From Candidatus Edwardsbacteria bacterium RifOxyA12_full_54_48 (GTDB lineage: Bacteria; Edwardsbacteria; AC1; EtOH8): DNA of 64,000 nt. Below are positions 8,203 to 53,842 of this stretch, piece after piece; positions within the stretch are counted from its first letter, which is position 1; the number at the start of each line of letters is the position of its first letter. The DNA lies in contig MFFN01000007.1 in the NCBI GenBank assembly GCA_001777915.1, positions 4,807 to 68,806 on the forward strand, in the 5' to 3' direction. The position numbers were made by a program, and so were the translations under genes. The notes under the pieces are model-generated. The model was given only the letters and a program-made list of their open reading frames with translations, searched no databases and was not told the DNA's origin.

Positions 8203-8562
8203 ATGTGCAAGCCAGTATTAAAATATATGTGCATAGTTCTTTCACTGATATTGTTTGCGGGCTATTTGCCTGCGCAGGTTATTGAAAAAAGTCAAGTTGA
8301 TAGTATTGCTGATGCGCAAGCAGGTTCTGTTAAAATTGATGGAATAAAACAAAGCGATAACACTGCTAAAATGGAAGCCGAAAATGATAGTACTGCCAAG
8401 GCAGATACTATTAGCCAAAAAATAAGCGATAAAGAAAAAGAAGAATTGCGCAAGGAAAAGAAAAAGGCTTTGATTGGGTTGGCAATAGTGGGTGGTATAA
8501 TAGTGACATTTTTATTTCTCGGATATGTGGCCAGCGAGTTGGGTAGTGATGGACCACGCTAA
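8203..8562 (+). CDS. Hypothetical secreted/anchored protein with Lys/Glu-rich middle and C-terminal TM segment, AT-rich ORFan
   Basis: 119 aa. N-terminus 'MCKPVLKYMCIVLSLILFAGYLPAQVIE' is paralogous to the 7479 ORF signal region. C-terminal hydrophobic 'LIGLAIVGGIIVTFLFLGYVA'. Confidence 0.5.
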   Translation: MCKPVLKYMCIVLSLILFAGYLPAQVIEKSQVDSIADAQAGSVKIDGIKQSDNTAKMEAENDSTAKADTISQKISDKEKEELRKEKKKALIGLAIVGGIIVTFLFLGYVASELGSDGPR

Positions 8563-8580
8563 ACGATCAACTGTAACAAG

Positions 8581-12343: not shown

Positions 12344-13846
12344 ATGAAGTTATTGAAGATCACCGATTTTGTTCTGATAGCTTTGGTGCTGTGCCTAATC
12401 GGCTGCGCCACCACCTCCCAGGCGGGAAAGCCCAAGGCTGAGGATCTCCTGAAGCAGGGAATCACTGCAGACGATCAGGGCGATTTCGACCAGGCCATCG
12501 ACCTATACCGTCAGGCCATCCAGCGGAAATTCAAGCTCAAAGAAGCCCACTACCGCCTGGGACAGATCTATGTCGAACGGAAGATGTTCGATGAGGCCAT
12601 CGCCGAGTTCAAAACGGCCCGGGATCTGAAATACCCCCAGGCGGTGACCGAGCTGGCCGTTACCTACCATAAGGCCGGGAAGCTGGACGAGGCCGAGGCC
12701 CTGATCAAGGAACTGCTGGTCAAGAAGCCCAATGACGTGGACCTCAAATACCGGCTGGGCAAGGTTTATCTGGACAAGGGGCAGCTGAACGAGGCCGGGG
12801 AGGTCTTCCGCCAGGTGCTGCAGATGGATCCCAACAATGCCAGCGCTCATAACGGTCTGGCCAACCTCTATTTCCGCCAGCGAAACTACAACCAGGCCAT
12901 GGCCGAGTATCTGCTGGCCATCAAACTCAACCCCGATTTCACCGACGTCAATCTGGACCTGGGCAGCGCCTACTTTCAGAGCGGCAAATATGCCGAGGCC
13001 TCCAGATATTTTAAAAAATACACCGAGCTGTCGCCCAAGGACGCCGCCGGCCACTATATGCTGGCCAAGGCTTATCAGATGCAGAAGGACACCGCCCTGA
13101 TCCAGCCGGCCATCATCGAGGCCCAAAAGGTCACCAAGATGGACCCTGAGAACGACGGAGTCTGGTATCTTCTGGGATCTTTGCAGTATGAGGTCAAGAA
13201 TTATATTGAATCGGCCCGGTCCTTCAGTAAATCACTGGAGCTGTCGCCGGGGGATCCCACCCGCTGGTACGAGGCCGCCAGGGTCTATATCCGGGCCGGC
13301 AGCGCTTATTCGGCCAACAAGGATACCGCAAATTCCAAGCTGATGTTCGATGCGGCGATCAACGCCTACCAAAAAAGGATGGAGTTGGACCCCTCCAAGG
13401 TGGAGGACACCTATTACGATATGGGCAATGCTTATTACTATGCCGGATATTATGATGAGGCCATACAGTGGTACCTGAAACGAATCGAAAAGAACCCGGC
13501 AACTGCTTTTGGCGCTTTGATGAACATGGGCTACAGCTATTCATTGAAGGGTCAGGCCAGCAAGGCTTCCAAGGCCGAGGTCCGGGTCATTTACGAAAAG
13601 GCCATCAACGCCTTCCTGCAGGCCAGGGCCCTGAAGATGGGAAATAATACCAAACCCGTCAAAGAGGCCATTCCGGCCATGGAAGCCCTGTCCCAGCATT
13701 ATCTGTATATTTTCAACAAATTTAACGAGAAGGCCTTTAAAAACAAGGCTTCGGCCGAAGCCAATGCCATTCTAAAGATAGATCCGGCCAATAAAATCGC
13801 CAAGGAGGTTCTGGCCGCCCTTAAACCCAAGGTGGAGGTCTGGTAG
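12344..13846 (+). CDS. TPR-repeat lipoprotein
   Basis: 500 aa. Lipobox 'LCLIGCATT'. Multiple TPR-like repeats (e.g. 'AHYRLGQIYVERKMFDEAIAEFKTA', 'AHNGLANLYFRQRNYNQAMAEYLLAIKLNP'). Confidence 0.7.
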   Translation: MKLLKITDFVLIALVLCLIGCATTSQAGKPKAEDLLKQGITADDQGDFDQAIDLYRQAIQRKFKLKEAHYRLGQIYVERKMFDEAIAEFKTARDLKYPQAVTELAVTYHKAGKLDEAEALIKELLVKKPNDVDLKYRLGKVYLDKGQLNEAGEVFRQVLQMDPNNASAHNGLANLYFRQRNYNQAMAEYLLAIKLNPDFTDVNLDLGSAYFQSGKYAEASRYFKKYTELSPKDAAGHYMLAKAYQMQKDTALIQPAIIEAQKVTKMDPENDGVWYLLGSLQYEVKNYIESARSFSKSLELSPGDPTRWYEAARVYIRAGSAYSANKDTANSKLMFDAAINAYQKRMELDPSKVEDTYYDMGNAYYYAGYYDEAIQWYLKRIEKNPATAFGALMNMGYSYSLKGQASKASKAEVRVIYEKAINAFLQARALKMGNNTKPVKEAIPAMEALSQHYLYIFNKFNEKAFKNKASAEANAILKIDPANKIAKEVLAALKPKVEVW

Positions 13847-13968
13847 ATATAGCGGCCTTAATATTTATTACGGCTTTGAATATTAGGAAACGGGTAAATT
13901 CAATTAACCGGCTCTCAATTTTGAGAAGCCCAATAAAAACCAAAAAGCACAGGAGGTAGTTTAAAACA

Positions 13969-14790
13969 ATGTTGAACGGACTGATGAATGCTCCGATGAT
14001 CGTCAAAATTTTGATCATGGGAGTCGTCCCGGCTATCGTAGCCGCTGGGTTGGGCATCGCCCTGGCCCGCACCAAGAAGATCGGATTGGTGACCCTGATA
14101 CTTTACGTCATCGGGCTGGCAGTATCATTTGTGATCTATAAGACCCTTCCGGAGTATATACAGGCCGGAGGCCCGGTGGTGATCATCCTGGTATTCCTGC
14201 TGGTGCTGTTGTTCACCTATATCATCGAGCGCAGCCTGACCATCGGCCGGGCCCGCGGTGCCAAGAACCTGACGGTCTTCATGGAGGAATTCCGGGAACT
14301 GCTGAGGGCCGGCAACGTCACCGGGGCCATCGCCGCCTGCAACGCCCAAAGAGGCTCCACCGCCAACGTTCTGAGGGCCGGACTGGAGAAATATCTGGCC
14401 CTGCAGAATGAGAACCTCACGCCCGACAAGAAAAGCGCCGAGTTGCTCCGGGCCATCGAAGAGGCCAACATGCTGGAGACCCCGCTGTTGGAGCGCAACC
14501 TGATAATGCTGACCACCATCGCCTCCATCGGGACCATGGTGGGCCTGCTGGGCACCACCCTCGGCATGATCCGCGCCTTCCAGGCCATGGCCCATGCCGG
14601 CGCCCCGGATGCCTCCGAGCTGGCCCGCGGCATCTCCGAGGCCCTGATCAACACCGCCGGCGGGTTGTTCAACGGCATCGGCGGCATCGTGGCCAACAAC
14701 TATTTCATGAACAAGGTCTCCCTGTTCCAGTTCGGCACCGACGAGGCCATTTACGAGATGCAGCAACTTTTGACGATAGGAGAAAAATAA
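13969..14790 (+). CDS. exbB: MotA/TolQ/ExbB proton-channel family protein
   Basis: 273 aa. Signature 'LTTIASIGTMVGLLGTTLGMIRAFQAM ... EALINTAGGLFNGIGGIVANNYF'. Confidence 0.8.
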   Translation: MLNGLMNAPMIVKILIMGVVPAIVAAGLGIALARTKKIGLVTLILYVIGLAVSFVIYKTLPEYIQAGGPVVIILVFLLVLLFTYIIERSLTIGRARGAKNLTVFMEEFRELLRAGNVTGAIAACNAQRGSTANVLRAGLEKYLALQNENLTPDKKSAELLRAIEEANMLETPLLERNLIMLTTIASIGTMVGLLGTTLGMIRAFQAMAHAGAPDASELARGISEALINTAGGLFNGIGGIVANNYFMNKVSLFQFGTDEAIYEMQQLLTIGEK

Positions 14791-23605: not shown

Positions 23606-26600
23606 ATGAAAAAGGTAGGTTTACTGGTAGCGGCCGTCATTATTCTGGCCGGATTGGCATCAGCCCAGACCACCATCTTCTCAGACAACATGACCGGCTT
23701 CCCCACGGGTTGGACGCTTTCGCCCACCACCGGTGGCTGGACCAAGACCTCCACCAAGTATTACAGTTCATCCTACAGCGCCATGTGCGACAATGTCAGT
23801 CCTTACGGGGCCAACCAGAACAATTATATAACCAAAACGGTCAGCCTATCGGGATATAGCAACGTCGCCCTGAAATTCTACATCTGGCAGTACAGCGAGA
23901 GCGGCTACGACTATATCCGGGTGCAGTACCTGGTGGGCAGCACCTGGACCACCGCCTGGCAGAGGGCCGGCAGCTATCAGTCTTGGGCCCAGCAGTCGGT
24001 CAGCATTCCCAACACCGCCACCCAGGTCCGATTTTATTTCAACTCCGACGGCAGCGTCCAGAACACCGGGGTGTACATCGATGACGTGGTCCTTACCGGG
24101 ACAGCGGCCACCGTTACCCAGAATGATGCCGGGACTGGCACCGATGCCGGCAACACCATAGCCACCGCTACCACGGTAAATCCGGGTTCGTGGACCGGCT
24201 GTTATTTGGATGCCACTGATCGAAACGACTATTACAAGTTTAACGTTACCGCGGGCCAGGTAATCAAACTAAAAGTAACCCCGCCCTCAACGGCCGACTA
24301 CGACCTCTATCTGCATAACACATCGCAGACCCAGGTTGGCGCCAGCACCCAGGGAACCGGCTTGGTTGACTCCATTGTCTACACCGCCACCACTACCGGC
24401 TACTGGTATTGCCGGGCCTACGAATACAGCGGCACCGGCAACTACTCATTGCTGATCTCGGTGAGCGGCGGGACCACCCCGACAACGATTCTGGCGATCA
24501 ACACGACCTCGTGGGCGCCGGTGGCGGCGGGCGGGACCAGCTCGGCAGTCAGCGTGACCAACAGCGGCACGAGCGGCAGCGTGATCGCCTACACGGTGTC
24601 CGACAACGCCACTTGGCTGACCACCTCGGCCGCCAGCGGCAATACCCCGGGCAGCTTCACCATGACGGCCTCGGCCAACACCGGTGCGGCGCGAAGCGCC
24701 ACGGTCACTGTGGCCGCGACCGGCCAGACCTCCAAGACCATCACCGTCAACCAGGCGGCAGCCAGCACCGGCGGAGCTGAATGGACCGTCATGATCTACC
24801 TGAACGCCGACAACAACCTGGAGACCGACGGGATCAACGATTTTCTGGAGATGGCCGCCGCCTCATACAGTTCGGGCAAGATCAACGTCATCGTTCAGAT
24901 GGACCGGGCCTCGGGCTACGCCACCACCTATGAGAATTGGACCGGCTGCAAGCGTTTCAAGATCGCCAGCGGGATGACCCCCACTGCGGCCTACCAGATA
25001 TCGGACCTGGGCGAGGTGGACATGGGCAGTCCCACCACCCTGGTCAACTTTGCCACCTGGGCCATCCAGAACTACCCGGCCAACCGCTATTCCCTGGTTA
25101 TGTGGGATCACGGCGACGGCTGGTACAAGACCGATGCCAGCCCCATCAAGGGCTTCTCCAACGACGACTCTCACGGTTCGGTGATCGGCATAGCCAACGG
25201 CGAATTCGCCAGCGCCATGGCCCAGATCAAGACCGCCCTGGGCCGGAACCTGGACCATATCGGCTGGGATGCCTGCCTGATGGGCATGTGGGAGGTGCTG
25301 GACATATCCCGCAATTACGCCAACGTGGCCAACGTCTCCGAGGAGACCGAGGGGGCCGCCGGCTGGTATTACACCACCTGGCTGAACGTCATGAACACCA
25401 CCCCCACCACCAGCGCCATTGACATGGGCAAAGCCATCATCAACGGCACCACTCAATCGACCCTGTCGGTGGTGGACCTGACCCTGATCTCCAATCTGAC
25501 CACCAAGGTCAACACCCTGGCCACCGAGCTGATGGCGACCCGGGGGGCCGGCCTGGGCGCCAGCATCAGCACGGCGCTTAACAATACCCTCAAGTTCTCC
25601 ACCAGCTATTTTTCATATCACATAGATCTGTCCGACTTCGCCGCCAAGGTCAAGGCCGCCATCACCACCCGGCCCACCCTGACCACCGCCTGCGACAACG
25701 TCATCAGCGCGGTGACCTCGGCGGTCAAACTGTACAAGAACTCCTCCACCTACGCCAATGCCCGGGGCATCGCGGTCTATCACTGCAAGATCGACGGCTC
25801 CAATTACGATACCGCCTACAACAGCCTGCCCATCGCCTCCAGCACGGTGTGGGATGAGTACATCAAGGGCGGCTCCAGCGGCGGAACCACCGCAAATTAC
25901 ACCAAGAGCACCGCCACCTACAGCTGGGATGCCTCGGCCACCACGGCCACCGGCCTGACCGGGGACGACCAGAGCGTCAGCAAGTCCATCGGTTTTGCCT
26001 TCAACTTCTACGGCACCAGCTATACCACCGTCAACATCTGTTCCAACGGGTTCCTCAATTTCGGCACCAGCTCCACCGCCTACACTCCGGCCGCCATCCC
26101 CAACACTGCGGCCCCCAACGCCCTGATCGCCGGCTTGTGGAGGGACCTTAACGTATCGGGCGGCGGAACCATCACCTACTACTCTTCGGCCACCAAATTC
26201 GTGGTGTCATTCAACGCCGTCAAGAACTACTCCAACACCAGCCTGCAAACCTTCCAGATGATCCTGACCCCCGACGGCAAGATCAAGATCCAGTGGGGTG
26301 GCATCACCACCGAGACCTATGCTTCGGGGGTGGAGAACCAGGGCGGCACGCTGGGCGTGGCGGCCACCGCCGCGGCCAATTCGGCGGCGCTGTTCACCCC
26401 GCCGGCGGCCTGGAGCAGCCCGATCAATGAGAATGAATTGGAGACCAGGCTCAATCCGCAGGGGATGCCGCTATCCAACCAGCTGTTCCAGAACGCCCCC
26501 AATCCGGTCAGATATAAAACCCTGATCGCCTTCCAATTGGAGAAGCCGGGCGCTGTTTCCCTGAAGATCTACAATCTCAACGGACAGCTGGTCAGAACCC

Positions 26601-26749
26601 TGGCCTCGGGGCAGCATAATTCCGGATATCATCAGGCCATGTGGGACGCCAAGGATGATGCCGGAAGGAAGGTGGCTGACGGAGTATATATCTATAAGCT
26701 GGCCTGCGGCGAGTTCAACCACGCCAAAAAAATGGTGCTGGTCAAATAA
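23606..26749 (+). CDS. Secreted clostripain-like (peptidase C11-type) cysteine peptidase with pre-peptidase domain and T9SS C-terminal sorting domain
   Basis: 1047 aa with signal peptide. 'EWTVMIYLNADNNLE', 'LVMWDHGDGWY' (putative catalytic His) and 'IGWDACLMGMWE' (putative catalytic Cys) resemble C11-family signatures. C-terminal 'NAPNPVRYKTLIAFQL...KIYNLNGQLVRTL...GVYIYKLACGEFNHAKKMVLVK' T9SS CTD. Confidence 0.7.
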   Translation: MKKVGLLVAAVIILAGLASAQTTIFSDNMTGFPTGWTLSPTTGGWTKTSTKYYSSSYSAMCDNVSPYGANQNNYITKTVSLSGYSNVALKFYIWQYSESGYDYIRVQYLVGSTWTTAWQRAGSYQSWAQQSVSIPNTATQVRFYFNSDGSVQNTGVYIDDVVLTGTAATVTQNDAGTGTDAGNTIATATTVNPGSWTGCYLDATDRNDYYKFNVTAGQVIKLKVTPPSTADYDLYLHNTSQTQVGASTQGTGLVDSIVYTATTTGYWYCRAYEYSGTGNYSLLISVSGGTTPTTILAINTTSWAPVAAGGTSSAVSVTNSGTSGSVIAYTVSDNATWLTTSAASGNTPGSFTMTASANTGAARSATVTVAATGQTSKTITVNQAAASTGGAEWTVMIYLNADNNLETDGINDFLEMAAASYSSGKINVIVQMDRASGYATTYENWTGCKRFKIASGMTPTAAYQISDLGEVDMGSPTTLVNFATWAIQNYPANRYSLVMWDHGDGWYKTDASPIKGFSNDDSHGSVIGIANGEFASAMAQIKTALGRNLDHIGWDACLMGMWEVLDISRNYANVANVSEETEGAAGWYYTTWLNVMNTTPTTSAIDMGKAIINGTTQSTLSVVDLTLISNLTTKVNTLATELMATRGAGLGASISTALNNTLKFSTSYFSYHIDLSDFAAKVKAAITTRPTLTTACDNVISAVTSAVKLYKNSSTYANARGIAVYHCKIDGSNYDTAYNSLPIASSTVWDEYIKGGSSGGTTANYTKSTATYSWDASATTATGLTGDDQSVSKSIGFAFNFYGTSYTTVNICSNGFLNFGTSSTAYTPAAIPNTAAPNALIAGLWRDLNVSGGGTITYYSSATKFVVSFNAVKNYSNTSLQTFQMILTPDGKIKIQWGGITTETYASGVENQGGTLGVAATAAANSAALFTPPAAWSSPINENELETRLNPQGMPLSNQLFQNAPNPVRYKTLIAFQLEKPGAVSLKIYNLNGQLVRTLASGQHNSGYHQAMWDAKDDAGRKVADGVYIYKLACGEFNHAKKMVLVK

Positions 26750-26873: not shown

Positions 26874-28052
26874 ATGAGAATACTTCACATAGTCACCGCT
26901 TTCCCCCGGGACGAAAAGGACATCATCACCCCCTGGCTGATAGAGATGCTGCGGCATTACCCGGCGCACGGCCTGGAGGCGGAGATATTCACTTCGTCCT
27001 ACCAGGGCCTGGGCGAACAGATGGTCCACGGGCTGCCGGTGCACCGCTTCCGTTATTTCTTCAAACGCTGGGAGAACCTGACCCACGAGGAGACCACCCC
27101 GGACCGCATGAAAAGATCCCTGCTGTACAAGATCATGCCGGCTTTCTACATCATTGGCGGAATGATCGGGATCGTTAAACTGTTAAGAAAAAGCCAATAC
27201 GATGCGGTCCATGTCCACTGGCCGCTGCCGCATGCCGTGTTCGGCTGGGCGGCCAAAACATTCTTCGGACTGCCGGTGGTCACCACCTTCTACGGGGTGG
27301 AGCTGCGCTGGGTGAAGCGCTCCATGCCTCTGCTGAAAGGTTTTCTGGCCTGGTCGGCCCGGATGTCGGATAAAGTTGTGGCCATCTCCAACTATACCGC
27401 CGGCGAGGTCAGGGAGCTGGCCGATGTGCCGGTGGAGGTGATCCCCTATACCATCAGCCTGCCGGAGAACCAGGAATTTTCACAGCCTCCGGCCGGTCCC
27501 AAGATCATCCTTTCGGTCAGCAGATTGGTGGAACGCAAGGGCATCATCTATCTGATAGACGCCCTTAAATATCTGCCGCAGGAATTGGAGGTCCATCTGG
27601 CCATCATCGGCGACGGCCCGGAGAGGGAACGTTTGAAGGAGAGGGCCCTGTCACAGAATCTGGGGCGAAAGATAAGCCTGCCCGGCTGGGTCAGCGAGGC
27701 GGAACTGGAGAGCGCCTACCGCAATGCTTCGGTGTTCGTTCTGCCGGCCATCATAGATTCCAAGGGCGATACCGAGGGTCTGGGGGTGGTCATCCTGGAG
27801 GCCATGAATTACAAGGTGCCGGCCATCGGCAGCGATCTGGGCGGGATCACTGACATTATAATAGATGAAGAAACAGGTTTGTTAGTGCCGGAGAAGGATC
27901 CCCAGGCTCTGGCCAGGGCAATTACCAGGATATTGACAGATGAGGACCTAAGAACTAAAGTTGTCGAGGGAGCCTATCAACATTTAAAGCGTAACTTTAG
28001 TTGGGATAACATATTAGAGAAATGGGTGAGAATCTATAAAGGTCTTGAGTAG
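26874..28052 (+). CDS. Glycosyltransferase family 4 (GT-B fold, group 1)
   Basis: 'LEAMNYKVPAIGSDLGGITDIIIDEETGLLVPEKD' (E-x7-E-type motif region); 'LAIIGDGPERERL'. Confidence 0.8.
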   Translation: MRILHIVTAFPRDEKDIITPWLIEMLRHYPAHGLEAEIFTSSYQGLGEQMVHGLPVHRFRYFFKRWENLTHEETTPDRMKRSLLYKIMPAFYIIGGMIGIVKLLRKSQYDAVHVHWPLPHAVFGWAAKTFFGLPVVTTFYGVELRWVKRSMPLLKGFLAWSARMSDKVVAISNYTAGEVRELADVPVEVIPYTISLPENQEFSQPPAGPKIILSVSRLVERKGIIYLIDALKYLPQELEVHLAIIGDGPERERLKERALSQNLGRKISLPGWVSEAELESAYRNASVFVLPAIIDSKGDTEGLGVVILEAMNYKVPAIGSDLGGITDIIIDEETGLLVPEKDPQALARAITRILTDEDLRTKVVEGAYQHLKRNFSWDNILEKWVRIYKGLE

Positions 28053-28083
28053 CTGTTTGTTAAAAACAGGTATAAAATTCACT

Positions 28084-28112
28084 AAAAACGACAGTTTTTT
28101 ACTGTCGTTTTT
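28084..28112 (+). terminator. Rho-independent terminator after the GT4 gene
   Basis: 'aaaaacgacagt-tttttt-actgtcgttttt' followed by a T-tract. Confidence 0.7.
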
Positions 28113-28214
28113 ATATTATTGTCATACAATATGTTATAAATCTGTTTATGCAAAAGGGATACCAAAAAGAATAAAAAAAGTCATTAAATATCACCTCCAG
28201 GGCTGATTTTAGGC

Positions 28215-28243
28215 TTGACATCAGGCCATATATGGTGCATAAT
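28215..28243 (+). promoter_or_regulatory. Sigma-70-type promoter of the nrd operon, with a candidate NrdR-box-like palindrome in the spacer
   Basis: TTGACA at 28215-28220, 17-nt spacer, CATAAT at 28238-28243. Spacer contains the palindrome 'CCATATATGG' at 28226-28235. Confidence 0.55.
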
Positions 28244-28275
28244 TACCCCCTTGCCACAAAATAAAGGGGTACGTC

Positions 28276-28749
28276 ATGAAATGTCCAGCCTGTTCTTTCC
28301 CCAAGGACAAGGTGATCGACTCCCGCTTATGTAAGGATGGCCAGGCCATTCGCCGCCGCAGGGAATGCCTGCAGTGCCATCGCCGTTACACCACCTACGA
28401 GTACATAGAATCAGCCCTGATGGTCGTAAAAAAGGACGGCCGGCGGGAGGCTTTTGACCACCAGAAGCTTATTTCCGGCATCCGCCGGGCGGTGGAGAAG
28501 AGGCCCATCAGCATCGACGCCCTGGAGAGGATGGTTGAGACCATCGAGAACGAACTCCAGGCGGGGGGTCATAACGAGGTACCGGCCGACGTCATCGGGG
28601 AACATGTGATGAAGCATCTCCAGGAGCTGGACGGGGTGGCCTACGTGCGTTTTGCCTCGGTCTACCGTTCCTTCCGCGAGGTGTCCGAATTCGCCGATGC
28701 GGCCAAGTCATTCGCCGAAAAAACCCAGCAAAAAAATATAAAAAAGTGA
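28276..28749 (+). CDS. nrdR: Transcriptional repressor NrdR
   Basis: N-terminal Zn-ribbon 'MKCPACSFPKDKVIDSR ... RRRRECLQCHRRYTTYE' followed by an ATP-cone. Confidence 0.9.
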   Translation: MKCPACSFPKDKVIDSRLCKDGQAIRRRRECLQCHRRYTTYEYIESALMVVKKDGRREAFDHQKLISGIRRAVEKRPISIDALERMVETIENELQAGGHNEVPADVIGEHVMKHLQELDGVAYVRFASVYRSFREVSEFADAAKSFAEKTQQKNIKK

Positions 28750-28756
28750 GGGAGCA

Positions 28757-31186
28757 ATGCCAGATAAAAACCGTGAGCTACTAGCCAGCCCGTCCACCCC
28801 CGAAACCCAGGAGCCTCCCCGCTTTTTATTTGCCGGAGAGAAGATCAAAGACCTGCACAGCTCTCTGGCCAACAAGATGTTCCATTTGGTCCAGAAGCGC
28901 AACGGCAATATAGTCAATTTCGACAAACGCAAGATCACCGAGGCCATCTTCAAGGCCGCCCAGGCGGTGGGCGGCACGGACAGCAGCGTCTCCGGGAACC
29001 TGGCCGACGAGGTGGTGCTCTTTTTGTATTCCTCCAAGGGCGATCATCTGCCCAACGTGGAACAGGTTCAGGATGCCGTGGAAAAAATCCTGATAGAACG
29101 CGGCCATGCCAAGACCGCCAAGGCCTATATTCTTTACCGCGACCAGCGGTCCAAGATCCGCCAGCAGAAGATCGTTGCCAGGCCCGATTCGGCAGAAGCC
29201 GGAAAGGAACAGGACGCCACCGATCTGGCGCTGTTCGTCCGGGTGTCGGACGACAACATCGTCCAGTGGGACCGGGAGAGGATCATCAGCGCCCTTAAAA
29301 AGGAGGCCGGGGTGGCCGAGGATATAGCCCACAAGATCGCCCGGGAGGTGGAGGACCAGATCATCAGCGCCAAGGTCAAGCGCCTGACCTCGTCCCTGGT
29401 CCGGGAACTGGTGGATGCCAAACTGGTGGAGCATGGCCTGGAGGAGGCCCGCAAGAAGCACTCCCGGCTGGGGCTTCCCCTGTTCGACGTGGAGAAGATC
29501 CTGACCGACCGCAACCGGGAGAACGCCAACATCCCCCACAATCCCGAGGCCACCAACATGTCGCTGGCCGAGACCATCAACAAGCAGTATGCCCTGGCCA
29601 AGGTCTTCTCCCAGGAGGTGGCCGATGCCCACTCCCGGGGCGATATTCACCTGCACGACCTGGGATTCATCAACCGGCCCTACTGTTCCGGGCAGAGCCT
29701 GGAATATGTCAAAAAATTCGGCCTGTCCCTGCCCAATGCCCTGTCCATCGCCAAGCCTGCCCGGCATGCCGACACCCTGCTGGCCCACATGGTAAAGTTC
29801 TCGGCCGCCCTGCAGGGGCATTTTGCCGGGGCCATCGGCTGGGATGCCGTCAATGTCTTCTTCGCCCCGTATCTGGTGGGCATGTCCGACCGCGACATGC
29901 AGCAGCTGGCCCAGATGATGATCTTTGAATACAGCCAGCAGTCGGTGGCCCGGGGCGGCCAGGCCATCTTCTCCGACCTGAACATCTACTGGGAGACCCC
30001 AAAGCATTTCGAGAACGTCCCGGCCATAGGCCCGGGCGGCGAGTATACCGGAAAGAAATACGGCGATTATCTAAAGGAGTCCCAGCGCTTCGCCTGGGCC
30101 CTGTTCGATGTCTACAAGGGGGGAGACGGCACCGGGCGTCCCTTCTTCTTTCCCAAGCCCCAGGTCCACATCACCGAAAAATTCTACCTGACGCCCGGCC
30201 ATCTGGATTTCCTCAACCATATCTCCCAGGTGGCGGCCGAGAAGGGCAACACCTATTTCGTGTTCGACCGGGGCGAGACCGCCAAGATATCCGAATGCTG
30301 CCGGCTGGCCTTCAAGCTGGAGGAGTCCGATCTGCAGGACGCCCACTTCCCCTGGAAGATGAGATATTCCGCCCTGCAGAACATCACTTTGAACCTGCCG
30401 CGCATCGCCTACCTGGCCAAGGGCGACACCAGCGCCCTGTTCAAAAAGATGGATGACTTCCTGCACCTCTCCGCCAAGGGCCACATTCAAAAGCGCAAGT
30501 TCATCGAAAAGCTGATGTCCCTGAAAGACCAGGGTCCGCTGGCACTGCTGGCCATGGAGAAGGACGGGGAGTCCTATCTGCGCCTGCCCCGGGTGTCGTT
30601 CCTTATAGGCATGCTGGGCCTGAACGAGATGGTCCAGATCCACACCGGCCAGGAGATGCACCAATCAACCGAGGCCTTCAAGTTCGGGTTGAAGGTCATC
30701 GCCTACCTGCATCTAAAGACCAAGGAGCTGGCCAAGGAATACAACATGAAGTTCGTACTGGAGCAGACCCCGGCCGAGAGCACCGCCTTCCGCTTTGCCA
30801 AGCTGGACCTGGAGCAATTCCCCAAGGAGGCCGAGAAGGTGGTCAAGGGCAACCTCAAGGATAATTCGGTCTATTACACCAACTCCACCTATCTGAACGT
30901 CTCTCATGCGGTCAACCCCATCGACCGGGTCAAGCAGGAGGGCAAGTTCCACGACATGATCGAGGCCGGGGCCCTGACCCATATCTGGATCGCCGATTCC
31001 CATCCTTCCCCGGAATCCATCGCCAATTTTGTCACCAAGACCTTCCGCCACACCCGCAATGCCCAGATCGCCTTCTCGCCGGAGTTCACCACCTGCAACG
31101 TCTGCAGCAAGGTCTACCGGGGCCTGATGGACGAGTGCCCGCACTGCAGCGGGAAGAGGGTCAGCGGGATTGAACGGATAAAGTAG
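28757..31186 (+). CDS. nrdD: Anaerobic ribonucleoside-triphosphate reductase large ORF (class III NrdD-like): ATP-cone(s), catalytic domain and Zn-ribbon, but no glycyl-radical motif
   Basis: 809 aa. ATP-cone 'VNFDKRKITEAIFKA'; 'NITLNLPRIAYLAKGD' reminiscent of NrdD; C-terminal Zn-ribbon 'TTCNVCSKVYRGLMDECPHCSG', then stop after 'KRVSGIERIK' with no R-x-x-G-Y motif. Operon context nrdR upstream, nrdG downstream. Confidence 0.7.
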   Translation: MPDKNRELLASPSTPETQEPPRFLFAGEKIKDLHSSLANKMFHLVQKRNGNIVNFDKRKITEAIFKAAQAVGGTDSSVSGNLADEVVLFLYSSKGDHLPNVEQVQDAVEKILIERGHAKTAKAYILYRDQRSKIRQQKIVARPDSAEAGKEQDATDLALFVRVSDDNIVQWDRERIISALKKEAGVAEDIAHKIAREVEDQIISAKVKRLTSSLVRELVDAKLVEHGLEEARKKHSRLGLPLFDVEKILTDRNRENANIPHNPEATNMSLAETINKQYALAKVFSQEVADAHSRGDIHLHDLGFINRPYCSGQSLEYVKKFGLSLPNALSIAKPARHADTLLAHMVKFSAALQGHFAGAIGWDAVNVFFAPYLVGMSDRDMQQLAQMMIFEYSQQSVARGGQAIFSDLNIYWETPKHFENVPAIGPGGEYTGKKYGDYLKESQRFAWALFDVYKGGDGTGRPFFFPKPQVHITEKFYLTPGHLDFLNHISQVAAEKGNTYFVFDRGETAKISECCRLAFKLEESDLQDAHFPWKMRYSALQNITLNLPRIAYLAKGDTSALFKKMDDFLHLSAKGHIQKRKFIEKLMSLKDQGPLALLAMEKDGESYLRLPRVSFLIGMLGLNEMVQIHTGQEMHQSTEAFKFGLKVIAYLHLKTKELAKEYNMKFVLEQTPAESTAFRFAKLDLEQFPKEAEKVVKGNLKDNSVYYTNSTYLNVSHAVNPIDRVKQEGKFHDMIEAGALTHIWIADSHPSPESIANFVTKTFRHTRNAQIAFSPEFTTCNVCSKVYRGLMDECPHCSGKRVSGIERIK

Positions 31187-31209
31187 GTCCGGCAGAAGTA
31201 TTCAGTATA

Positions 31210-31293
31210 CAGGAGACAGTATACTGTAGGGGCGAAGTCTCTTCGCCCCGGGCCTAATCCAGATAATAGTGCGAAGTCCCTTCGCCCGGACCC
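31210..31293 (+). repeat. Direct repeat copy A (~80 bp, twin hairpins) flanking the CreD-like gene
   Basis: 'caggagacagta...ggggcgaagtctcttcgccccgggcctaatccagataatagtgcgaagtcccttcgcccggaccc'; contains hairpins GGGGCGAAG/CTTCGCCCC and GCGAAG/CTTCGC. Confidence 0.7.
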
Positions 31294-31321: not shown

Positions 31322-32575
31322 ATGGCCAAAAAGATAGCCGCCATCGTCTTCGTTTTCTTCTGCACCGCCATGGCCTGGGTGATCCTGGGCGGGGTGACGG
31401 TGGACCGCACCAACTCCCAGGACAGCAAGCTCAAGCGGGCGGTGGGCCAGCTGTGGGGCACCACCCAGCGCCAGAGCGCGCCGCTGGTGTTCTACCAGGT
31501 CAGGCAGGAGCAGAAGGTGGTCAAGGCCACCGAGGGGGGCAGGACCGTCACCGAGACCAGGACCAGCCTGTCCGATTACTACCTGAACCTGGAATCCAGC
31601 GACATCAGGGCCGACCTGAGGCTGACCCACCGCAAAAAGGGCCTGCTGTGGTATTCCACCTATCAGGTGGATTTCGACGGCACCTACGGTTTGATCAACA
31701 GCACCTCGGATGAACGCCAGATCTGCTTCCAGTATTCCTTCCCCTCCCGGGACGGCATCTACGACGATTTCGCCATCTCGGTCAACGGCCTGCCGGAGAA
31801 GGAGCTGGTGCCCACCGACGGCAAGATCTGCAAATGGATCCGGCTGAAGCCCGGCCAGACCGCCCAGGTGCGGGTGGCCTACCACTCCCAGGGGCTGGAC
31901 CAGTGGTGGTACGTCTTCGGGGACAATATCTCGCAGATCCGCAATTTTAAGCTGGCCATGACCACCGATTTCGGGCGGATAGATTTCCCGGAGAACGCCA
32001 TCTCGCCCACCGCCAAGCATGCCCTGAGTAATATCGGAGGGACCAAGAAGGGCGGGGGATGGGAGCTAATCTGGCAGTACACCAACCTGATCTCCGGGAT
32101 CCAGATCGGCATGGATATGCCCAAGAAAATAAACCCCGGTCCCTTCGTCAGCAAGATCAGCTTCTTCGCGCCGGTGTCTTTATTCCTGTTCTTCTTCCTG
32201 GTGTTCATCATCACCGCCCTGCGCGGCATAAAACTGCACCCCATGCATTACTTCTTCCTGGCGGCGTCGTTCTTTGCCTTCCACCTGCTGATGGCCTACC
32301 TGGCGGACCACGCCGACATCTACCTGGCGTTCTTCATCAGCGCGGCGGTGTCGGTGTTCCTGGCGGTGTCCTATATGCGGATCGTGGCCGGGGCCCGCTT
32401 TGCCCTGGTGGAGACGGCCCTGGCCCAGCTGGTTTACCTGGTGTTCTTTTCCTACGCCTTCTTCTGGGAGGGATACACCGGGCTGGCCATCACCATCTGC
32501 TGTATTGCCACGCTGTTCGTGGTGATGCAGTTCACGGCCAGGATAGATTGGGATAAGCAGTTTTCGGGGAAATGA
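31322..32575 (+). CDS. CreD-like inner membrane protein (N-terminal TM, large periplasmic domain, C-terminal multi-TM region)
   Basis: Topology and length resemble CreD-family envelope proteins. AAGGAG 5 nt upstream of the ATG at 31322. Family assignment is by architecture only. Confidence 0.45.
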   Translation: MAKKIAAIVFVFFCTAMAWVILGGVTVDRTNSQDSKLKRAVGQLWGTTQRQSAPLVFYQVRQEQKVVKATEGGRTVTETRTSLSDYYLNLESSDIRADLRLTHRKKGLLWYSTYQVDFDGTYGLINSTSDERQICFQYSFPSRDGIYDDFAISVNGLPEKELVPTDGKICKWIRLKPGQTAQVRVAYHSQGLDQWWYVFGDNISQIRNFKLAMTTDFGRIDFPENAISPTAKHALSNIGGTKKGGGWELIWQYTNLISGIQIGMDMPKKINPGPFVSKISFFAPVSLFLFFFLVFIITALRGIKLHPMHYFFLAASFFAFHLLMAYLADHADIYLAFFISAAVSVFLAVSYMRIVAGARFALVETALAQLVYLVFFSYAFFWEGYTGLAITICCIATLFVVMQFTARIDWDKQFSGK

Positions 32576-32608
32576 GGGGCAAGTAGGCGGGTATGGGTAT
32601 TCAGGAGA

Positions 32609-32684
32609 CAGGAGACAGTAGGGGCGAAGTCTCTTCGCTCTGGGCCTAATCAAGAAGATAGTGATGAAGGGCCTTCGCCCGACC
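32609..32684 (+). repeat. Direct repeat copy B (~76 bp) flanking the CreD-like gene
   Basis: 'caggagacagtaggggcgaagtctcttcgctctgggcctaatcaagaagatagtgatgaagggccttcgcccgacccc'; by eye roughly 85-90% identical to copy A apart from a 6-nt indel. Confidence 0.7.
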
Positions 32685-32850
32685 CCTCCCTGGCCCTCCC
32701 CGCAGCGGAGAGGGAATGGACATTGCGAAGAGGCGAGTTAATGTAAGAAAAAGCCAAGCGTTTAATGCTGTGAGTGTACTGAAATGAATTTTACTAAAGG
32801 TGCGTATTCAAATAACTATTACTAAGATTGTAGAAAAAATAGGGGGTTTT

Positions 32851-33093
32851 ATGGAAATTGTGAGAAAAGCACCTGCAGCCTTGAATCTTTTATGGAAAGA
32901 AGGTTTTTTTAAGAAGGATAAAAGTATAGCTGAAGTAGAAACTGTGTTGCACGAGAAAGGTTATAATTTTGGTTCTGCCACACGTAAGGCACTAGAGCGT
33001 ACAAAGTTTCTTATGCAAAAAGGTGAAAGGGGTAATAGGAGGTTCATACAGAAGCACCCATATGTGGAGATAAAAAATGAAAAACACAAGTAA
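32851..33093 (+). CDS. Hypothetical small basic protein (AT-rich island, paralog 1)
   Basis: ATG at 32851 with AGGGGG 5-10 nt upstream. Shares a 'KEGFFKKDKSIAEVETVLHEKGY...RKALER' region with the next ORF. Confidence 0.45.
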   Translation: MEIVRKAPAALNLLWKEGFFKKDKSIAEVETVLHEKGYNFGSATRKALERTKFLMQKGERGNRRFIQKHPYVEIKNEKHK

Positions 33094-33400
33094 GGATTTA
33101 TTGAAAGTATTAGTAGATCACGAAAAACGTATATCGAGGTTAGAAAGTTCGGGCGCAAAAATTAAACCACCAAGAGTAAAGAAAAATATCTCTCTGCCAG
33201 ATCATATTCTTGCATTAAGAGACAAGGGTTTCTTTGCCAAACCTAAAACAGTAGAAGATACACAGAATAGGTTATCAGATTTCTATTCATGTGATAAGAA
33301 CCGTGTAGCAGTGGCACTATTAAGGTTATCTACCAAAAAGCAATTACGAAGAACTTCAACAAAGAAAAACGATAAAAATAATATTGCGTTTACATGGTGA
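33077..33400 (+). CDS. Hypothetical small basic protein (AT-rich island, paralog 2)
   Basis: 107 aa. 'DKGFFAKPKTVEDTQNRLSDFY...RVAVALLRL' aligns with the previous ORF. Lys-rich C-terminus. Confidence 0.45.
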   Translation: MKNTSKDLLKVLVDHEKRISRLESSGAKIKPPRVKKNISLPDHILALRDKGFFAKPKTVEDTQNRLSDFYSCDKNRVAVALLRLSTKKQLRRTSTKKNDKNNIAFTW

Positions 33401-34182
33401 GCAACATGAATAAACCCGATATAATAAAAAAAATAAAACTTATACAAATTAAAAAGAATACAATCCAGTATTATATTATACAATTATTAATTAAGGGAAT
33501 ACTAAACGACATAGTTGATTCGGCGGGTTTGGCTCATCTTATTAATGAAGAGTATCAAAGGAAGATTAAACCCTCAGATATTGTGGCATGCATTAAGCCC
33601 ATTGTTAGTAACGATATATTACGTAGTCTTATTATCAAAAAGGGTAAACGGTCATATAGGTATTGGTATCCAGCTTGGATAGCAAAGGATGTCGCTATTT
33701 CTAGGGTCAATAAAACAAAAGAAAAGGTATTGTTTATTACTGGACATGAAGCATGGTCAGACCAAAATAAAAGATTAAAAAGTATTTTCGATATTTTGGA
33801 AGGCGAAATAGATATCATCGATCCTTATTATGGATATAATACCCTGCATGCGCTATCATTATTTGGGAAAACAAGAAAGGTCCGTTTTCTAACTTGCAAT
33901 ACTGGTAATAGTGAAAAACGAGATATTACAAATTTTAATTTGCAGTTTGCAAGATTTAAAAAAGAATTTCGTAATATATTATTCAAACAATTTGCGTTAC
34001 CTGAAATACACGATAGGTATATTTTGTCTAAAAATGCAATTGTTATCATCGGTCATGGGATAAAAGATATTGGCAACAAAGAGTCCTTTGTCATTTATCT
34101 AGAGAAAGAATTGGTTTCCAAAATATTGCCAACACTGCGAAAACTATTCAATCTTAAATGGAGCAATTCAATAAATATATAA
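33394..34182 (+). CDS. Hypothetical protein (AT-rich island) with a C-terminal segment resembling a degenerate PLD-like (H-x-K-type) motif
   Basis: 262 aa. 'IHDRYILSKNAIVIIGHGIKDIG' resembles the PLD/Nuc 'HxK(x)4D(x)6G' signature but with Arg in place of Lys. No confident family assignment. Confidence 0.4.
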   Translation: MVSNMNKPDIIKKIKLIQIKKNTIQYYIIQLLIKGILNDIVDSAGLAHLINEEYQRKIKPSDIVACIKPIVSNDILRSLIIKKGKRSYRYWYPAWIAKDVAISRVNKTKEKVLFITGHEAWSDQNKRLKSIFDILEGEIDIIDPYYGYNTLHALSLFGKTRKVRFLTCNTGNSEKRDITNFNLQFARFKKEFRNILFKQFALPEIHDRYILSKNAIVIIGHGIKDIGNKESFVIYLEKELVSKILPTLRKLFNLKWSNSINI

Positions 34183-34313
34183 TAAAGTGCTATGTGGTTG
34201 TAGGCATTGTAGTTGCGATAGTTAGTATTTAATAAATTGTCTTCGTTTTTTTTTCTGCACCACGGGCTTGGATCATCTTGAGTGGGTGGTAAACAACTCT
34301 TGGCAATAAGTAA

Positions 34314-34333
34314 GGACACGGCATGCCGTGTCC
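34314..34333 (+). promoter_or_regulatory. Perfect 20-bp palindrome upstream of the glycyl-radical ORF (candidate operator or stem-loop)
   Basis: 'GGACACGGCATGCCGTGTCC'; arms 'acaC...Gtgt' resemble the outer positions of NrdR-box palindromes; lies about 45 nt upstream of the ATG at 34376. Confidence 0.45.
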
Positions 34334-34375
34334 CAACAGATAGATAAAATCAAAATAATATAAACGGAGGTCATC

Positions 34376-34663
34376 ATGGAACTGCAGGAACTGAAGGACA
34401 AACTGAGCGCCGAGAAGCACATCTACGACTTCACCGAAGAGGGCGGGGACGTCATCATCCGCAACAAGAAGCACGGGGTCAAGATCCGCTGCAGCGCCGA
34501 GGCCGTCGCCAAGCACGACTGGGCCACCATCAAGTCCCAGACCGTGGGCGGCCGGGACGTCAACCACATCACCCGGGTCACCGGCTATTTCACCATCGTG
34601 GAGGGCTGGAACAAGGGCAAGCTGGGCGAGCTCAAGGACCGCTACCACTCCCAGATCGCCTGA
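34376..34663 (+). CDS. Standalone glycyl-radical domain protein with NrdD-type C-terminal motif
   Basis: 95 aa. 'ITRVTGYFTIVEGWNKGKLGELKDR' matches the class III RNR C-terminal glycyl-radical region (E. coli NrdD 'RVCGYLGSPDARPFNAGKQEEVKRR' as recalled from memory). Own RBS (GGAGG) and ATG. Confidence 0.6.
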   Translation: MELQELKDKLSAEKHIYDFTEEGGDVIIRNKKHGVKIRCSAEAVAKHDWATIKSQTVGGRDVNHITRVTGYFTIVEGWNKGKLGELKDRYHSQIA

Positions 34664-34799
34664 TAGGGTTCGTCATTCCCTTGGAAGCTTGTCCTCGCGA
34701 AAGCGGGGAAGGGGATCCGGGGATATCAGAGTGGATTCCAGCCTTGCGCTGGAATGACTATCCTATAATAATTAAATCTACAAGGATAAGGCATATACT

Positions 34800-36023: not shown

Positions 36024-36425
36024 TCAATACCAGATCTTTGGGGTGGTTACGGTGAAGGTCTTATTGTAACCGTAGGCATCGGTCCCGGTAAAAGTGACCT
36101 GAACCGAGGCGCCTGCCCCCATGGCCGGATAAGTGGGGGTGAAGGTATATGAATAGACGCCGCCGCCCGGAACATAACCGGCGATATTATAGCTTTCAAC
36201 GATCGGGGTTGTTCCGACTGTATCAGTAAAGGTGGTGGTCCGCTTGTTAAGGACGGCATCAACGTAATTCATGTTCTCAAAAGACACGGTTAATATCCCG
36301 CCGCCGCCCGGAGGGTCAACATCGGTGATTATCAATTCCGGCGCCGGGGTCACAGAACTGCAACCCACAATGGTCAGCAGGGCTATGAAAATCAGGGAAA
36401 TTAACTTTTTCATGGTAACCTCCAA
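36024..36425 (-). CDS. Hypothetical small lipoprotein
   Basis: 133 aa. Lipobox 'LTIVGCSS'; Thr/Gly-rich beta-like sequence. Confidence 0.5.
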   Translation of the reverse strand: MEVTMKKLISLIFIALLTIVGCSSVTPAPELIITDVDPPGGGGILTVSFENMNYVDAVLNKRTTTFTDTVGTTPIVESYNIAGYVPGGGVYSYTFTPTYPAMGAGASVQVTFTGTDAYGYNKTFTVTTPKIWY

Positions 36426-36543
36426 AATATTTTGGTTTGTTGAATTATCCCTTTAAGTGTCCCTATCAATTGGATAGTATAGTGTAACTTAGTGATTATG
36501 TCAAGAGAAAAAATAAAAAAAAATAAAAAAATAAAAAAAGTTC

Positions 36544-36572
36544 TTGACAAATATGGACAAAATGAATAAAAT
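36544..36572 (+). promoter_or_regulatory. Sigma-70-type promoter (TTGACA, 17 bp, TAAAAT) preceded by an A-tract, upstream of the HTH gene and pil operon
   Basis: TTGACA at 36544-36549, 17-nt spacer, TAAAAT at 36567-36572. A-rich tract 'gagaaaaaataaaaaaaaataaaaaaataaaaaaag' at 36505-36540 is UP-element-like. Confidence 0.55.
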
Positions 36573-36638
36573 GTCTAAAGGTAGCTTTGTCTATAGTTAT
36601 ATATACTTACCGATACTTCATTCTTGAGCGAGGTAAAT

Positions 36639-36833
36639 ATGCCTGTATCCCCAAAAGAAATAGATTCCGGGAAATTATACACCGTCTCGGAGACTGCCAA
36701 GATCCTGGCGGTCACCGACCAGACGGTGCGCAAACATTTGGGCGTAAAAAATCTCCCGGGCAAAAAGGTCGGCCGGCGATGGCTGGTCAAGGGAAGCGAG
36801 ATCCAGAAATTTATTGGCGAATTGGGCTGGTAG
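36639..36833 (+). CDS. Excisionase/MerR-like helix-turn-helix DNA-binding protein
   Basis: 64 aa from the ATG at 36639. 'LYTVSETAKILAVTDQTVRKHL...GRRWLV' HTH pattern. Confidence 0.55.
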   Translation: MPVSPKEIDSGKLYTVSETAKILAVTDQTVRKHLGVKNLPGKKVGRRWLVKGSEIQKFIGELGW

Positions 36834-52076: not shown

Positions 52077-52688
52077 ATGAGAAATACAATAATATTCGTA
52101 ATCATCGCAACAATATTTTATTCGTGCGATAAAATAGAAGAAAATAATAATACAAAAGTGGATATTAAAAGGAATACGCAAACTATACAAGATTCAACAA
52201 TATATTGTGCTTTAAAATACAATCTTGAAATTTTTACAATGGCACACAGTACATCAAATAATATTGATTCTATTATAAAGTATTATGAATTAAATGAAAA
52301 TAATAAAATTGAAAGCAAAGCAAAGTCATTTCCGGAAACGCAAGAAGATGAACATCTTTTAAATACATTCATTGGTATAATTATGAAAGGGAAATTAAAT
52401 GTTACATATATAATAAAAATGACGCTGATTAATAAAAACAATGCTGAACTAGGGGAGGTGTTTATTGATGTTCTTGCAAAACATTGGCAAAACCCAGAGA
52501 AAGATTTCATTAAGGCCGTTATCAGCTTGCCAGATTCAGAGTGTGCAAGAATTATTTATAGCACAATTCCGGAAGAGCCAAAAGAAGTAAAAGAAATTAT
52601 AAAAAAGGTAGATAAATTATCGGAAATAAAAAATCTAAAAGGCTATGATTTATTAAAGAAAATATTAATTGAATTAGCTAATAGATAA
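52077..52688 (+). CDS. Hypothetical lipoprotein (AT-rich ORFan)
   Basis: 203 aa. Lipobox 'IFYSCDK'; Lys/Asn/Ile-rich; strongly AT-rich relative to neighbours. Confidence 0.5.
   Translation: MRNTIIFVIIATIFYSCDKIEENNNTKVDIKRNTQTIQDSTIYCALKYNLEIFTMAHSTSNNIDSIIKYYELNENNKIESKAKSFPETQEDEHLLNTFIGIIMKGKLNVTYIIKMTLINKNNAELGEVFIDVLAKHWQNPEKDFIKAVISLPDSECARIIYSTIPEEPKEVKEIIKKVDKLSEIKNLKGYDLLKKILIELANR

Positions 52689-53766: not shown

Positions 53767-53842
<76 letters not shown>

Follow-up and report, generated by a model that had tools for sequence, protein, structure and literature searches.

A strain-variable three-gene island in a split anaerobic ribonucleotide reductase locus of Candidatus Edwardsbacteria encodes a candidate defence module with a PLD-fold putative effector

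The 64,000-nucleotide (nt) stretch of contig MFFN01000007.1 from Candidatus Edwardsbacteria bacterium RifOxyA12_full_54_48 (hereafter the window) raises the question why its anaerobic ribonucleotide reductase locus is split by an AT-rich insert of ~1.7 kb, and what the three proteins encoded in this insert, denoted A, B and C, might do. The insert is a horizontally acquired, strain-specific operon that lies outside nucleotide metabolism. Judging from the comparisons described below, A-B-C belongs to a widespread, undescribed family of two- to four-gene modules and can be viewed as a hitherto undescribed relative of candidate anti-phage systems. With moderate confidence, its function can be predicted to be that of a defence or conflict module directed against invading DNA (phages and other mobile elements), with a nuclease as the effector. 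The island consists of the following segments.

32576..34309, no strand: strain-variable segment (the island proper), GC content 0.33, extending from just past the end of the CreD-like gene to where similarity to relatives is regained upstream of the nrdD-C open reading frame (ORF)
32851..33093, plus strand: gene A, 80 amino acids (aa), stand-alone A-type small winged-helix protein
33077..33400, plus strand: gene B, 107 aa, B-type small winged-helix protein
33394..34182, plus strand: gene C, 262 aa, putative effector with a winged helix and a phospholipase D (PLD)-fold domain

The initial annotation, made from the sequence alone, described an abrupt compositional drop at about 32700 with recovery at about 34200, and both are reproduced in 300-nt and 1-kb windows. 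In 300-nt windows, the GC content falls from 0.58-0.61 at 32200-32650 to 0.29-0.37 at 32800-34300 and returns to 0.56-0.62 by 34300-34750; the kilobase 33001-34000 is the lowest-GC kilobase of the entire window (0.318), and genes A, B and C jointly have a GC content of 0.323 compared to 0.546 in the remainder. The three ORFs described in that annotation were likewise recovered, at the coordinates listed above and on the plus strand. These ORFs overlap by 17 nt (A/B) and 7 nt (B/C) and therefore form one tightly coupled operon. The sequence GGGGG is located 5 nt upstream of the ATG of gene A, and a promoter and terminator scan yielded no excess over the shuffled expectation.

The horizontal origin of the island becomes apparent from the comparison with related loci, which can be ranked by the identity of their NrdD to that of the window (97% for L016 and L017, ~80% for L020 and L021, and 66% for L022). 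This protein places the organism as a relative of Candidatus Edwardsbacteria / UBP2. The contents of the segment between nrdD and the nrdD-C ORF, together with the feature that marks the right edge of the island, are these.

Window locus: CreD-like gene, then A-B-C
L016 (NrdD 97%): CreD-like gene, followed by the CreD 3' end and spacer in tandem copies
L017 (NrdD 97%): CreD-like gene, then an AT-rich gene for a 255-aa TIR_2 protein
L020 (NrdD ~80%): no CreD-like gene or A/B/C match; ~1.5 kb between the ORFs not examined
L021 (NrdD ~80%): nothing between the two ORFs, which are 286 nt apart
34313..34334 in the window, no strand: perfect GC-rich hairpin GGACACGGCATGCCGTGTCC, right island edge, with a terminator-like score on the minus strand

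Similarity to L016 and L017 is lost right at the CreD stop codon and regained at GTAAGGACACGGCATGCCGTGTCCCAACAGATA, with the conserved hairpin at 34313-34334. This hairpin is kept in L016 and L017, that is, in relatives that lack the island, and begins the conserved nrdD-C leader. The TIR_2 gene of L017 (13878-14645; Pfam E = 4.6e-9; GC content 0.33-0.39) occupies an insertion point identical to that of window 32576-34309. None of L016, L017, L020 and L021 has a match to the A-B-C module, so that its uniform presence in related genomes in a core-genome context, which the initial annotation had named as evidence against acquisition, is not what is seen. The module deviates in composition, is missing from close relatives and recurs in unrelated lineages, and the proposal of a horizontally acquired accessory module is borne out. 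Given the sharp breakpoints in the relatives with 97% identity and the TIR_2 gene at the same spot in L017, the creD/nrdD-C junction is, as far as these alignments indicate, a hyper-variable hotspot whose immune-type cargo differs between strains. The gap in the nrd locus would thus be an integration hotspot that swaps immune cargo: the window has the PLD module, a sister strain a TIR gene and a third strain no cargo.

Elsewhere, the module has a lower GC content than its flanks in 34 of the 39 loci compared (median difference -0.05). The hosts include relatives within Edwardsbacteria, Thermodesulfovibrionia, Chloroflexi, Patescibacteria, Omnitrophota, Spirochaetia and one archaeal-looking contig. 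Searches of IMG/VR contigs, PLSDB plasmids and GenBank phages detected no member of the module family, and a structure search of BFVD returned only distant poxvirus F13-type PLDs.

Protein C carries the strongest functional indications. It consists of an N-terminal winged helix (residues ~1-105) and a PLD-fold domain of the MIT_C/HDR type (residues ~108-262); the AlphaFold2 model (pLDDT 88.8) has two domains, of which the C-terminal one adopts the alpha/beta fold of the PLD superfamily. In the alignment of the C family (39 members), the N-terminal half is variable whereas the C-terminal half is highly conserved, with D143, G147, H206, D207, R208, Y209, I210, G220, G222 and D225 invariant and H221, I223, K224, G227, K229, E230 and S231 conserved in at least 90% of the members. 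The most conserved part is the C-terminal motif IHDRYILS...GHGIKDIG. Two blocks stand out.

33820..33834, plus strand: DPYYG motif of C (D143-G147), with the invariant Asp directly after the second PLD strand (E139-142)
34009..34086, plus strand: HDRY(I)...GHGIKDIGNKES block of C (H206-S231), the presumed catalytic core

In the model, D143 follows strand 139-142 and the HDR triplet (H206-D207-R208) directly precedes the fifth strand (E209-211), which is the arrangement of the MIT_C/HDR subgroup. The canonical HKD pattern, HxK(x)4D(x)6G(S/G)xN, is replaced in the C family by H206-D-R208-Y-I-x-x-[D/K]-x(6)-G220-H-G, with Arg in place of Lys and, in window C, also Lys in place of the second Asp. 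The suggestion that C ends in a degenerate PLD-like H-x-K motif with Arg replacing Lys thus stands with respect to the PLD fold and the HDR motif; the word "degenerate" does not. A comparative study from 2025 described an Asp/Glu after beta2 and an HDR before strand 5 in the NsnC PB-PLD1 domain, in MIT_C and in many BrxL C-termini (PMC12065111). Because the placement of HDR in C equals this description, it most likely represents the signature of a distinct, MIT_C-like PLD subgroup and not a decayed version of the canonical one.

The MIT_C/HDR domains of MITD1 (PDB 4A5Z, 2YMB), NsnC, BrxL and DruE share with C the Asp after strand 2 and the His-Asp-Arg before strand 5. A functional precedent is DruE of Druantia, which is reported to contain MITD1-like PLD domains with an Asp...Asp-Arg-Tyr pocket that is needed for cleavage of single-stranded DNA and for phage defence; mutants of the Asp and the Arg lose defence (bioRxiv 10.64898/2026.05.13.724313). 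The Asp-Arg-Tyr triplet of C is also present in this active site. The domain partners differ: an inactive PIN domain along with the ParB-type NsnA/NsnB in Menshen, AAA+/Lon in BrxL, a helicase in DruE and MIT in MITD1, as opposed to winged helices in the case of C. Profile searches of the PDB gave no sequence-level match between the MITD1 chains and C. Among the 39 relatives of C, MIT_C (Pfam PF16565) matches 22 (best E = 1.9e-4), the NsnC profile 12 (in the PLD domain only) and PLDc_2 six; neither the NsnC nor the PLDc_2 profile matches window C.

The absence of any assignable family, claimed for all three proteins in the initial annotation, holds for Pfam, NCBIfam and PHROGs, which yielded nothing significant for A, B or C. 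It does not hold for PADLOC: both profiles of the candidate system PDC-S05 match C (one at residues 107-248 with E = 1.1e-11, the other with E = 1.6e-8), as well as 39 of the 39 relatives (E from 1e-8 to 1.5e-16). The matched region extends from profile positions ~156-181 to ~267-302, of 285 or 306, so that the C-terminal ~130 positions correspond to the PLD domain of C and its relatives whereas positions 1 to ~160 are unmatched, the N-terminus of C being a winged helix. Furthermore, PDC-S05 is a single-gene candidate, unlike the C family with its small winged-helix partners. With the match restricted to the last ~40% of the profile, C can be considered a relative of PDC-S05 through its effector domain, not a member. 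A PDC-S05 representative protected Escherichia coli against T7, T5 and T4 (Nat Commun 2026, PMC12881386 / bioRxiv 10.1101/2024.09.26.614923).

The remaining matches of A, B and C are of little consequence. ApyI (E = 0.038), VPA1262_N (0.008) and two PHROGs (~0.04-0.06) fall far below the curated cut-offs, and the PDB sequence profile matches of C, for which both its full-length alignment and its isolated PLD domain served as queries (xylanase, and AgrA around "DRY/DRF"), are attributable to chance. Outright homology to a housekeeping family, which would have argued against an accessory role, was not found. A word-index search with C recovered 55 clusters, and an exhaustive profile search of 1.84 billion representatives recovered 240 at E <= 1e-30, 699 at E <= 1e-10 and 2397 at E <= 1e-3, which depicts a sparse, unnamed family. 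By eye, HDR-type PLD domains are also joined to quite different N-termini, namely pentapeptide-repeat-like ones in P0180 and P0195, a Cys-rich CxxCxGxG zinc-ribbon-like segment in P0177 and a longer unrelated region in P0166. These fusions suggest a promiscuous effector domain.

Proteins A and B resemble each other only at the profile level. A pairwise BLASTP comparison was not significant (E = 0.29, in a different register), but a hidden Markov model (HMM) built from ten small proteins whose genes precede C homologues elsewhere, leaving out those of the window, matched both B (E = 2.2e-9) and A (E = 4.8e-8) and no other of the 643 six-frame ORFs of the window. The two proteins accordingly belong to one domain family, with the GFF-K-x-K core as its hallmark. 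The paralogy previously read from this core, which might have vanished upon proper alignment, is therefore confirmed by an independent profile even if not by direct pairwise comparison. The shared core reads I..L...GFF..PK.L..I...L...G..Y..T.LS..L..LVR...L.R.K....W.YV. A winged helix, that is, a three-helix bundle with a beta-hairpin wing, is indicated for B and for the N-terminus of C by the models and for A by the shared domain profile. Derivation of the small-protein domain from the same ancestor as the N-terminus of C was considered as well; the hhalign probability of 30% is too weak to accept it. A search for the small proteins returned 229 clusters, every one of them labelled hypothetical.

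Within this domain family, A and B appear to represent separate subtypes, each of them conserved. Gene A has the motif APxALxLLWKEGFFKK...GYNFGSATRKALER..FL...G.RGNRRFIQKHPY; A-type proteins are stand-alone, 85-100 aa long, and share the motif "KTAPDALkiLW...GyNF..A.rkAL.R..FL..GkRG..yIQKyPy". With an A-type HMM, the closest C-family loci yield stand-alone orthologues immediately before the B-type gene (e.g., L031, E = 3e-26; L026, E = 3e-24). The possibility that A is a truncated remnant of the 224-aa protein of L103 (see below) is ruled out because such stand-alone genes are the rule in the closest relatives, and A is a normal component of the module. B-type proteins are ~111-116 aa long with an N-terminal "DHEKRIxxLE" helix; window B combines this long helix with a basic disordered linker and the winged-helix domain (GFFAKPK...).

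The association between C and the small proteins is a general one that extends across phyla. The HMMs of C and of the small proteins were run on ten contexts obtained by exact-protein look-up and on 80 metagenomic loci. Of the 91 loci that contain a C homologue, 73 have between one and three small-protein ORFs immediately upstream on the same strand, and never downstream; of the 18 loci without a small-protein match, nine have less than 400 nt of upstream sequence. In the subfamily nearest to the window (~40% identity over the full length), the gene order is U-A-B-C. The optional U protein is ~120-130 aa long and has a short beta-rich segment at its N-terminus. The four-gene form is found in L024, L026, L030 and L036, and the A-B-C form of the window in L025, L029, L033 and L034. 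More distant relatives of C have a single partner of 130 aa (L011, L012) or 268 aa (L014).

The neighbourhoods of these modules resemble defence islands. The 146 ORFs scanned within 3.2 kb of the module come from ~30 non-redundant loci. N6_N4_Mtase is the Pfam family seen most often among them (7 ORFs); together with the D12-class (2) and C5 (1) enzymes, it amounts to 10 DNA methyltransferase ORFs. Judged from the general rarity of DNA methyltransferases, this number is far above background. Other neighbours are resolvases or recombinases, ResIII and TPR-S proteins; in L014 (Chloroflexi), the module adjoins TIR-WD40, SLATT_1 and TPR-S genes. In 11 of 36 loci, a scan for (D/N/S)PP(Y/F/W)-type motifs detected such ORFs no more than 3 kb away. 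As their distance and strand are variable, and none is present at the island of the window, a DNA methyltransferase as a fixed fourth component is ruled out; these genes are co-located with the module, not a constant part of it. In L038, a DPPY/FxGxG DNA methyltransferase (6473-7324) begins 17 nt past the end of the C homologue and in the same orientation, an arrangement which suggests that some members of the C family may now be part of a restriction-modification-like unit.

In two loci, C itself is replaced. L103 (Patescibacteria, 4657-7975) and L104 (named as Spirochaetia in the source, 4657-7536) contain two or three small genes followed by two proteins instead of C. The first of these (160-168 aa) combines a B-like helix with a winged helix that resembles the N-terminus of C; the second (224 aa) has 72 N-terminal residues of the A type and a different C-terminal domain (...FLGDTSAHN...). 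Window A and the N-terminus of the 224-aa protein of L103 are 39% identical (E = 5e-13). The L103 block is located between hsdM and hsdS of a type I restriction-modification operon (HsdR, HsdM ... HsdS), next to AbiEii. Two more genes follow the block in L103 (149 and 192 aa, the first with a weak match to HEPN_Cthe2314, E = 0.0015), and two different ones in L104 (169 and 164 aa). Conserved small partners combined with interchangeable effector domains are a pattern seen in many immune systems.

Taken against individual known systems, the module is distinct. Unlike Menshen (NsnABC), the island holds A, B and C only, and C begins with a winged helix rather than an inactive PIN domain. DISARM is not a match either: DrmC hits 5 of the 39 relatives, with E values of at least 1.6e-4, and DrmA/B are absent from the island. 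The similarity to LmuA of Lamassu (E = 0.043 over 40 residues) was rejected, and there is no LmuB in the island. With the PLD nucleases and restriction enzymes (Nuc, NucT, Zucchini, BfiI, NgoAVII, SauUSI), C shares the presence of one PLD domain per chain, which implies a dimeric active site; as in BfiI and NgoAVII, the putative catalytic domain is fused to a separate DNA-binding domain, and DNA methyltransferases are often found near C in other loci. In contrast to these enzymes, HxK(x)4D becomes H-D-R-Y-I(x2)[D/x] in C, the identity is only 8-14%, no cognate methyltransferase is encoded in the island, and C lacks the helicase domain of SauUSI. In the searchable literature, the small-protein families, the architecture combining a winged helix-turn-helix (wHTH) with PLD and the multi-gene operon are not described, and a search there for the MIT_C/HDR domain in a defence context found only the Menshen paper. 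The type of effector domain is already known and common to the PADLOC candidate; as far as this literature shows, the small-protein families and the wHTH-PLD operon are new.

A tentative mechanism can be outlined. PLD nucleases with a single such domain, among them Nuc, BfiI and Zucchini, dimerise to form one active site. C would likewise dimerise through its PLD domain into a single active site and hydrolyse phosphodiester bonds in DNA, with the winged helix of C or the small proteins A and B delivering the substrate or restricting access to it. A and B would be DNA-binding partners, translationally coupled with C, and the long N-terminal helix of B might offer an oligomerisation surface. These proteins could either inhibit C until a phage cue is received, acting as antitoxin or sensor, or direct C to foreign DNA. 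In a broader version of this scheme, which is conceivable but held more tentatively than a defence role as such, A-B-C would represent a new multi-component immune family in which the small proteins U, A and B serve as sensors or adaptors that license interchangeable effectors fused to winged helices; the effector would be an HDR-type PLD nuclease here and another C-terminal domain in L103 and L104.

Several observations weigh against this interpretation. The PDC-S05 match is confined to the C-terminal ~40% of the profile, at 30-53 bits for window C and seven relatives. The validated PDC-S05 protein was reported with a RhuM domain (PMC12881386 / bioRxiv 10.1101/2024.09.26.614923), and a profile scan found no trace of RhuM in C or its 39 relatives. 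Window C matches no Pfam model at E <= 1, and the MIT_C matches among its relatives are weak (best E = 1.9e-4). The eukaryotic MIT_C domain, that of MITD1, is a membrane-binding, non-catalytic module, so that conservation of the HDR residues is no proof of catalysis. Window B is divergent within the B-type family (21-32% identity), and the counts of neighbouring methyltransferases stand without a matched control set. At the island itself, there is no further defence gene, integrase, nearby tRNA (the sole tRNA of the window is at 53767-53842) or flanking direct repeat; the 14-nt repeat pair D14, considered as a possible insertion signature, is regarded as a chance occurrence. The earlier guess of a module "possibly defence or toxin-antitoxin like" has gained from the PDC-S05 match, the swapping of effector domains and the defence-island-type neighbourhoods; it is, all the same, a function that we infer, and the role of A and B is inferred throughout.

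Should A-B-C prove to be a working defence system, it would be compact (~1.3 kb) and of an unusual layout, with several small paralogous DNA-binding proteins and one nuclease. Its components have neither a Pfam family nor a name, and the hosts (candidate phyla, Patescibacteria, archaea) are poorly studied. C would also represent the simplest known context of the MIT_C/HDR PLD domain, and a protein of 262 aa is an easy test case for its chemistry. Recent papers assign this domain the central catalytic part in Druantia DruE and suspect the same in BrxL, Menshen NsnC and human MITD1. If active, C could therefore become a minimal, tractable model for MIT_C enzymology, with a bearing on BrxL and human MITD1.

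The alternative that fares best is that of a toxin-antitoxin (TA) or addiction module, in which C would be a nuclease toxin and A and/or B DNA-binding antitoxins and autoregulators, without a dedicated anti-phage role, and post-segregational killing, or drift on mobile DNA, would account for its persistence. The island has the layout of a type II TA system, with genes for small, DNA-binding, winged-helix proteins located just upstream of a larger enzyme-like gene and overlapping (by 17 nt and 7 nt), and the patchy distribution, the AT-richness and the lack of an obligatory partner such as a methyltransferase are all in line with this possibility. However, classical type II systems have one antitoxin whereas one to three paralogous winged-helix genes are conserved here; plasmids and phages, which commonly carry addiction modules, gave no matches; and the effector domain is of a type that so far comes from the defence systems NsnC, BrxL, DruE and PDC-S05. 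Addiction alone thus appears unlikely, and it is compatible with a role in defence, many defence systems being TA-like.

Rather improbable is the notion of a non-catalytic, DNA-binding or regulatory set, with C similar to TrmB/TrmBL2, the PLD-like domain serving for ligand binding or dimerisation as in MITD1, and A and B acting as co-regulators, for instance of a former mobile element. The presence of winged helices in all three proteins agrees with such a role, but ~15 polar residues are invariant or nearly so at the positions of the PLD catalytic motif, a conservation of catalytic-type residues by which C differs from TrmB, and the same residues are required for the nuclease-dependent defence by DruE (bioRxiv 10.64898/2026.05.13.724313). 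The identity to TrmB is 11-12%, without a match to the Pfam TrmB models at the level of sequence profiles, and the context is accessory and foreign, the neighbourhoods being rich in restriction-modification genes rather than in regulated metabolic operons. The last alternative, under which A, B and C would, for example, regulate or assist the split NrdD/NrdG system, has only the position on the same strand between nrdD and the glycyl-radical ORF in its favour and is effectively refuted by the absence of A-B-C from the relatives with a split nrd locus (L016, L017, L020, L021), by the occurrence of C homologues in dozens of unrelated contexts but never beside nrd genes, by the foreign composition and by the TIR gene in the same slot of L017. 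In genome annotation, A, B and C should not be taken as nucleotide metabolism genes.

The locus that surrounds the island contains the following genes and repeat.

28757-31186: NrdD, 809 aa
31316-32575: gene for a CreD-like membrane protein, directly followed by the island
32597..32686, plus strand: hairpin-containing repeat at the left island edge, the second copy of the element 31205-31293
34376-34663: nrdD-C ORF, 95 aa, with the NrdD glycyl-radical motif (Pfam NRDD positions 530-560, E = 2e-6)

The nrdD-C ORF is followed by a glutaredoxin- or thioredoxin-like ORF and then by an NrdG-type radical-SAM activase. The placement of the island between the two halves of a ribonucleotide reductase locus is thereby corroborated, with NrdD and the CreD-like gene before it and the nrdD-C ORF and the activase after it. 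The class III ribonucleotide reductase itself is naturally split: the 809-aa NrdD stops just past the Cys4 zinc ribbon (...CPHCSGKRVSGIERIK), and the glycyl-radical motif (RVTGY...) resides on the separate 95-aa ORF, which has a 60-aa N-terminal extension and lies 3.2 kb downstream of NrdD. The spacing between the two is 286 nt in L021 and ~1.5 kb in L020 (both with ~80% NrdD identity); in L022 (66% identity), the matches to NrdD and the glycyl-radical part are contiguous and look like a single fused gene. This stand-alone glycyl-radical "spare part" for NrdD may merit separate attention.

The CreD-like gene also looks like an insertion, considering that L020 and L021 lack it downstream of nrdD. 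It is bracketed by the two copies of the above repeat, the one noteworthy repeat at this locus and an element of 67-90 nt (67 nt at 87% identity along with 21-nt sub-repeats; repeat families D1 and D2) that contains the perfect hairpin GGGGCGAAG-TCT-CTTCGCCCC. The repeat core GGCGAAGTCTCTTCGC occurs at these two sites of the window only (0.48 chance matches expected), and no further copy of the element was found in the window. In L016, the final 60 nt of creD and the spacer are present in three tandem copies (13750-14130).

Several other AT-rich patches (GC content 0.30-0.45) interrupt this genome of ~58% GC, namely window 7470-12294, 52077-52688, 62089-63048, 36400-36700 and 28000-28300. One of the patches holds genes for two small proteins, either membrane or secreted ones, and for a secreted protein of 1237 aa whose C-terminal ~80 aa resemble the C-terminus of a 1047-aa protease-like protein encoded at 23606-26749; another contains a 203-aa lipoprotein-like ORF, and yet another a 319-aa protein with a YARHG-like C-terminus (...FARRGYVF...). 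These patches may be further acquired accessory genes.

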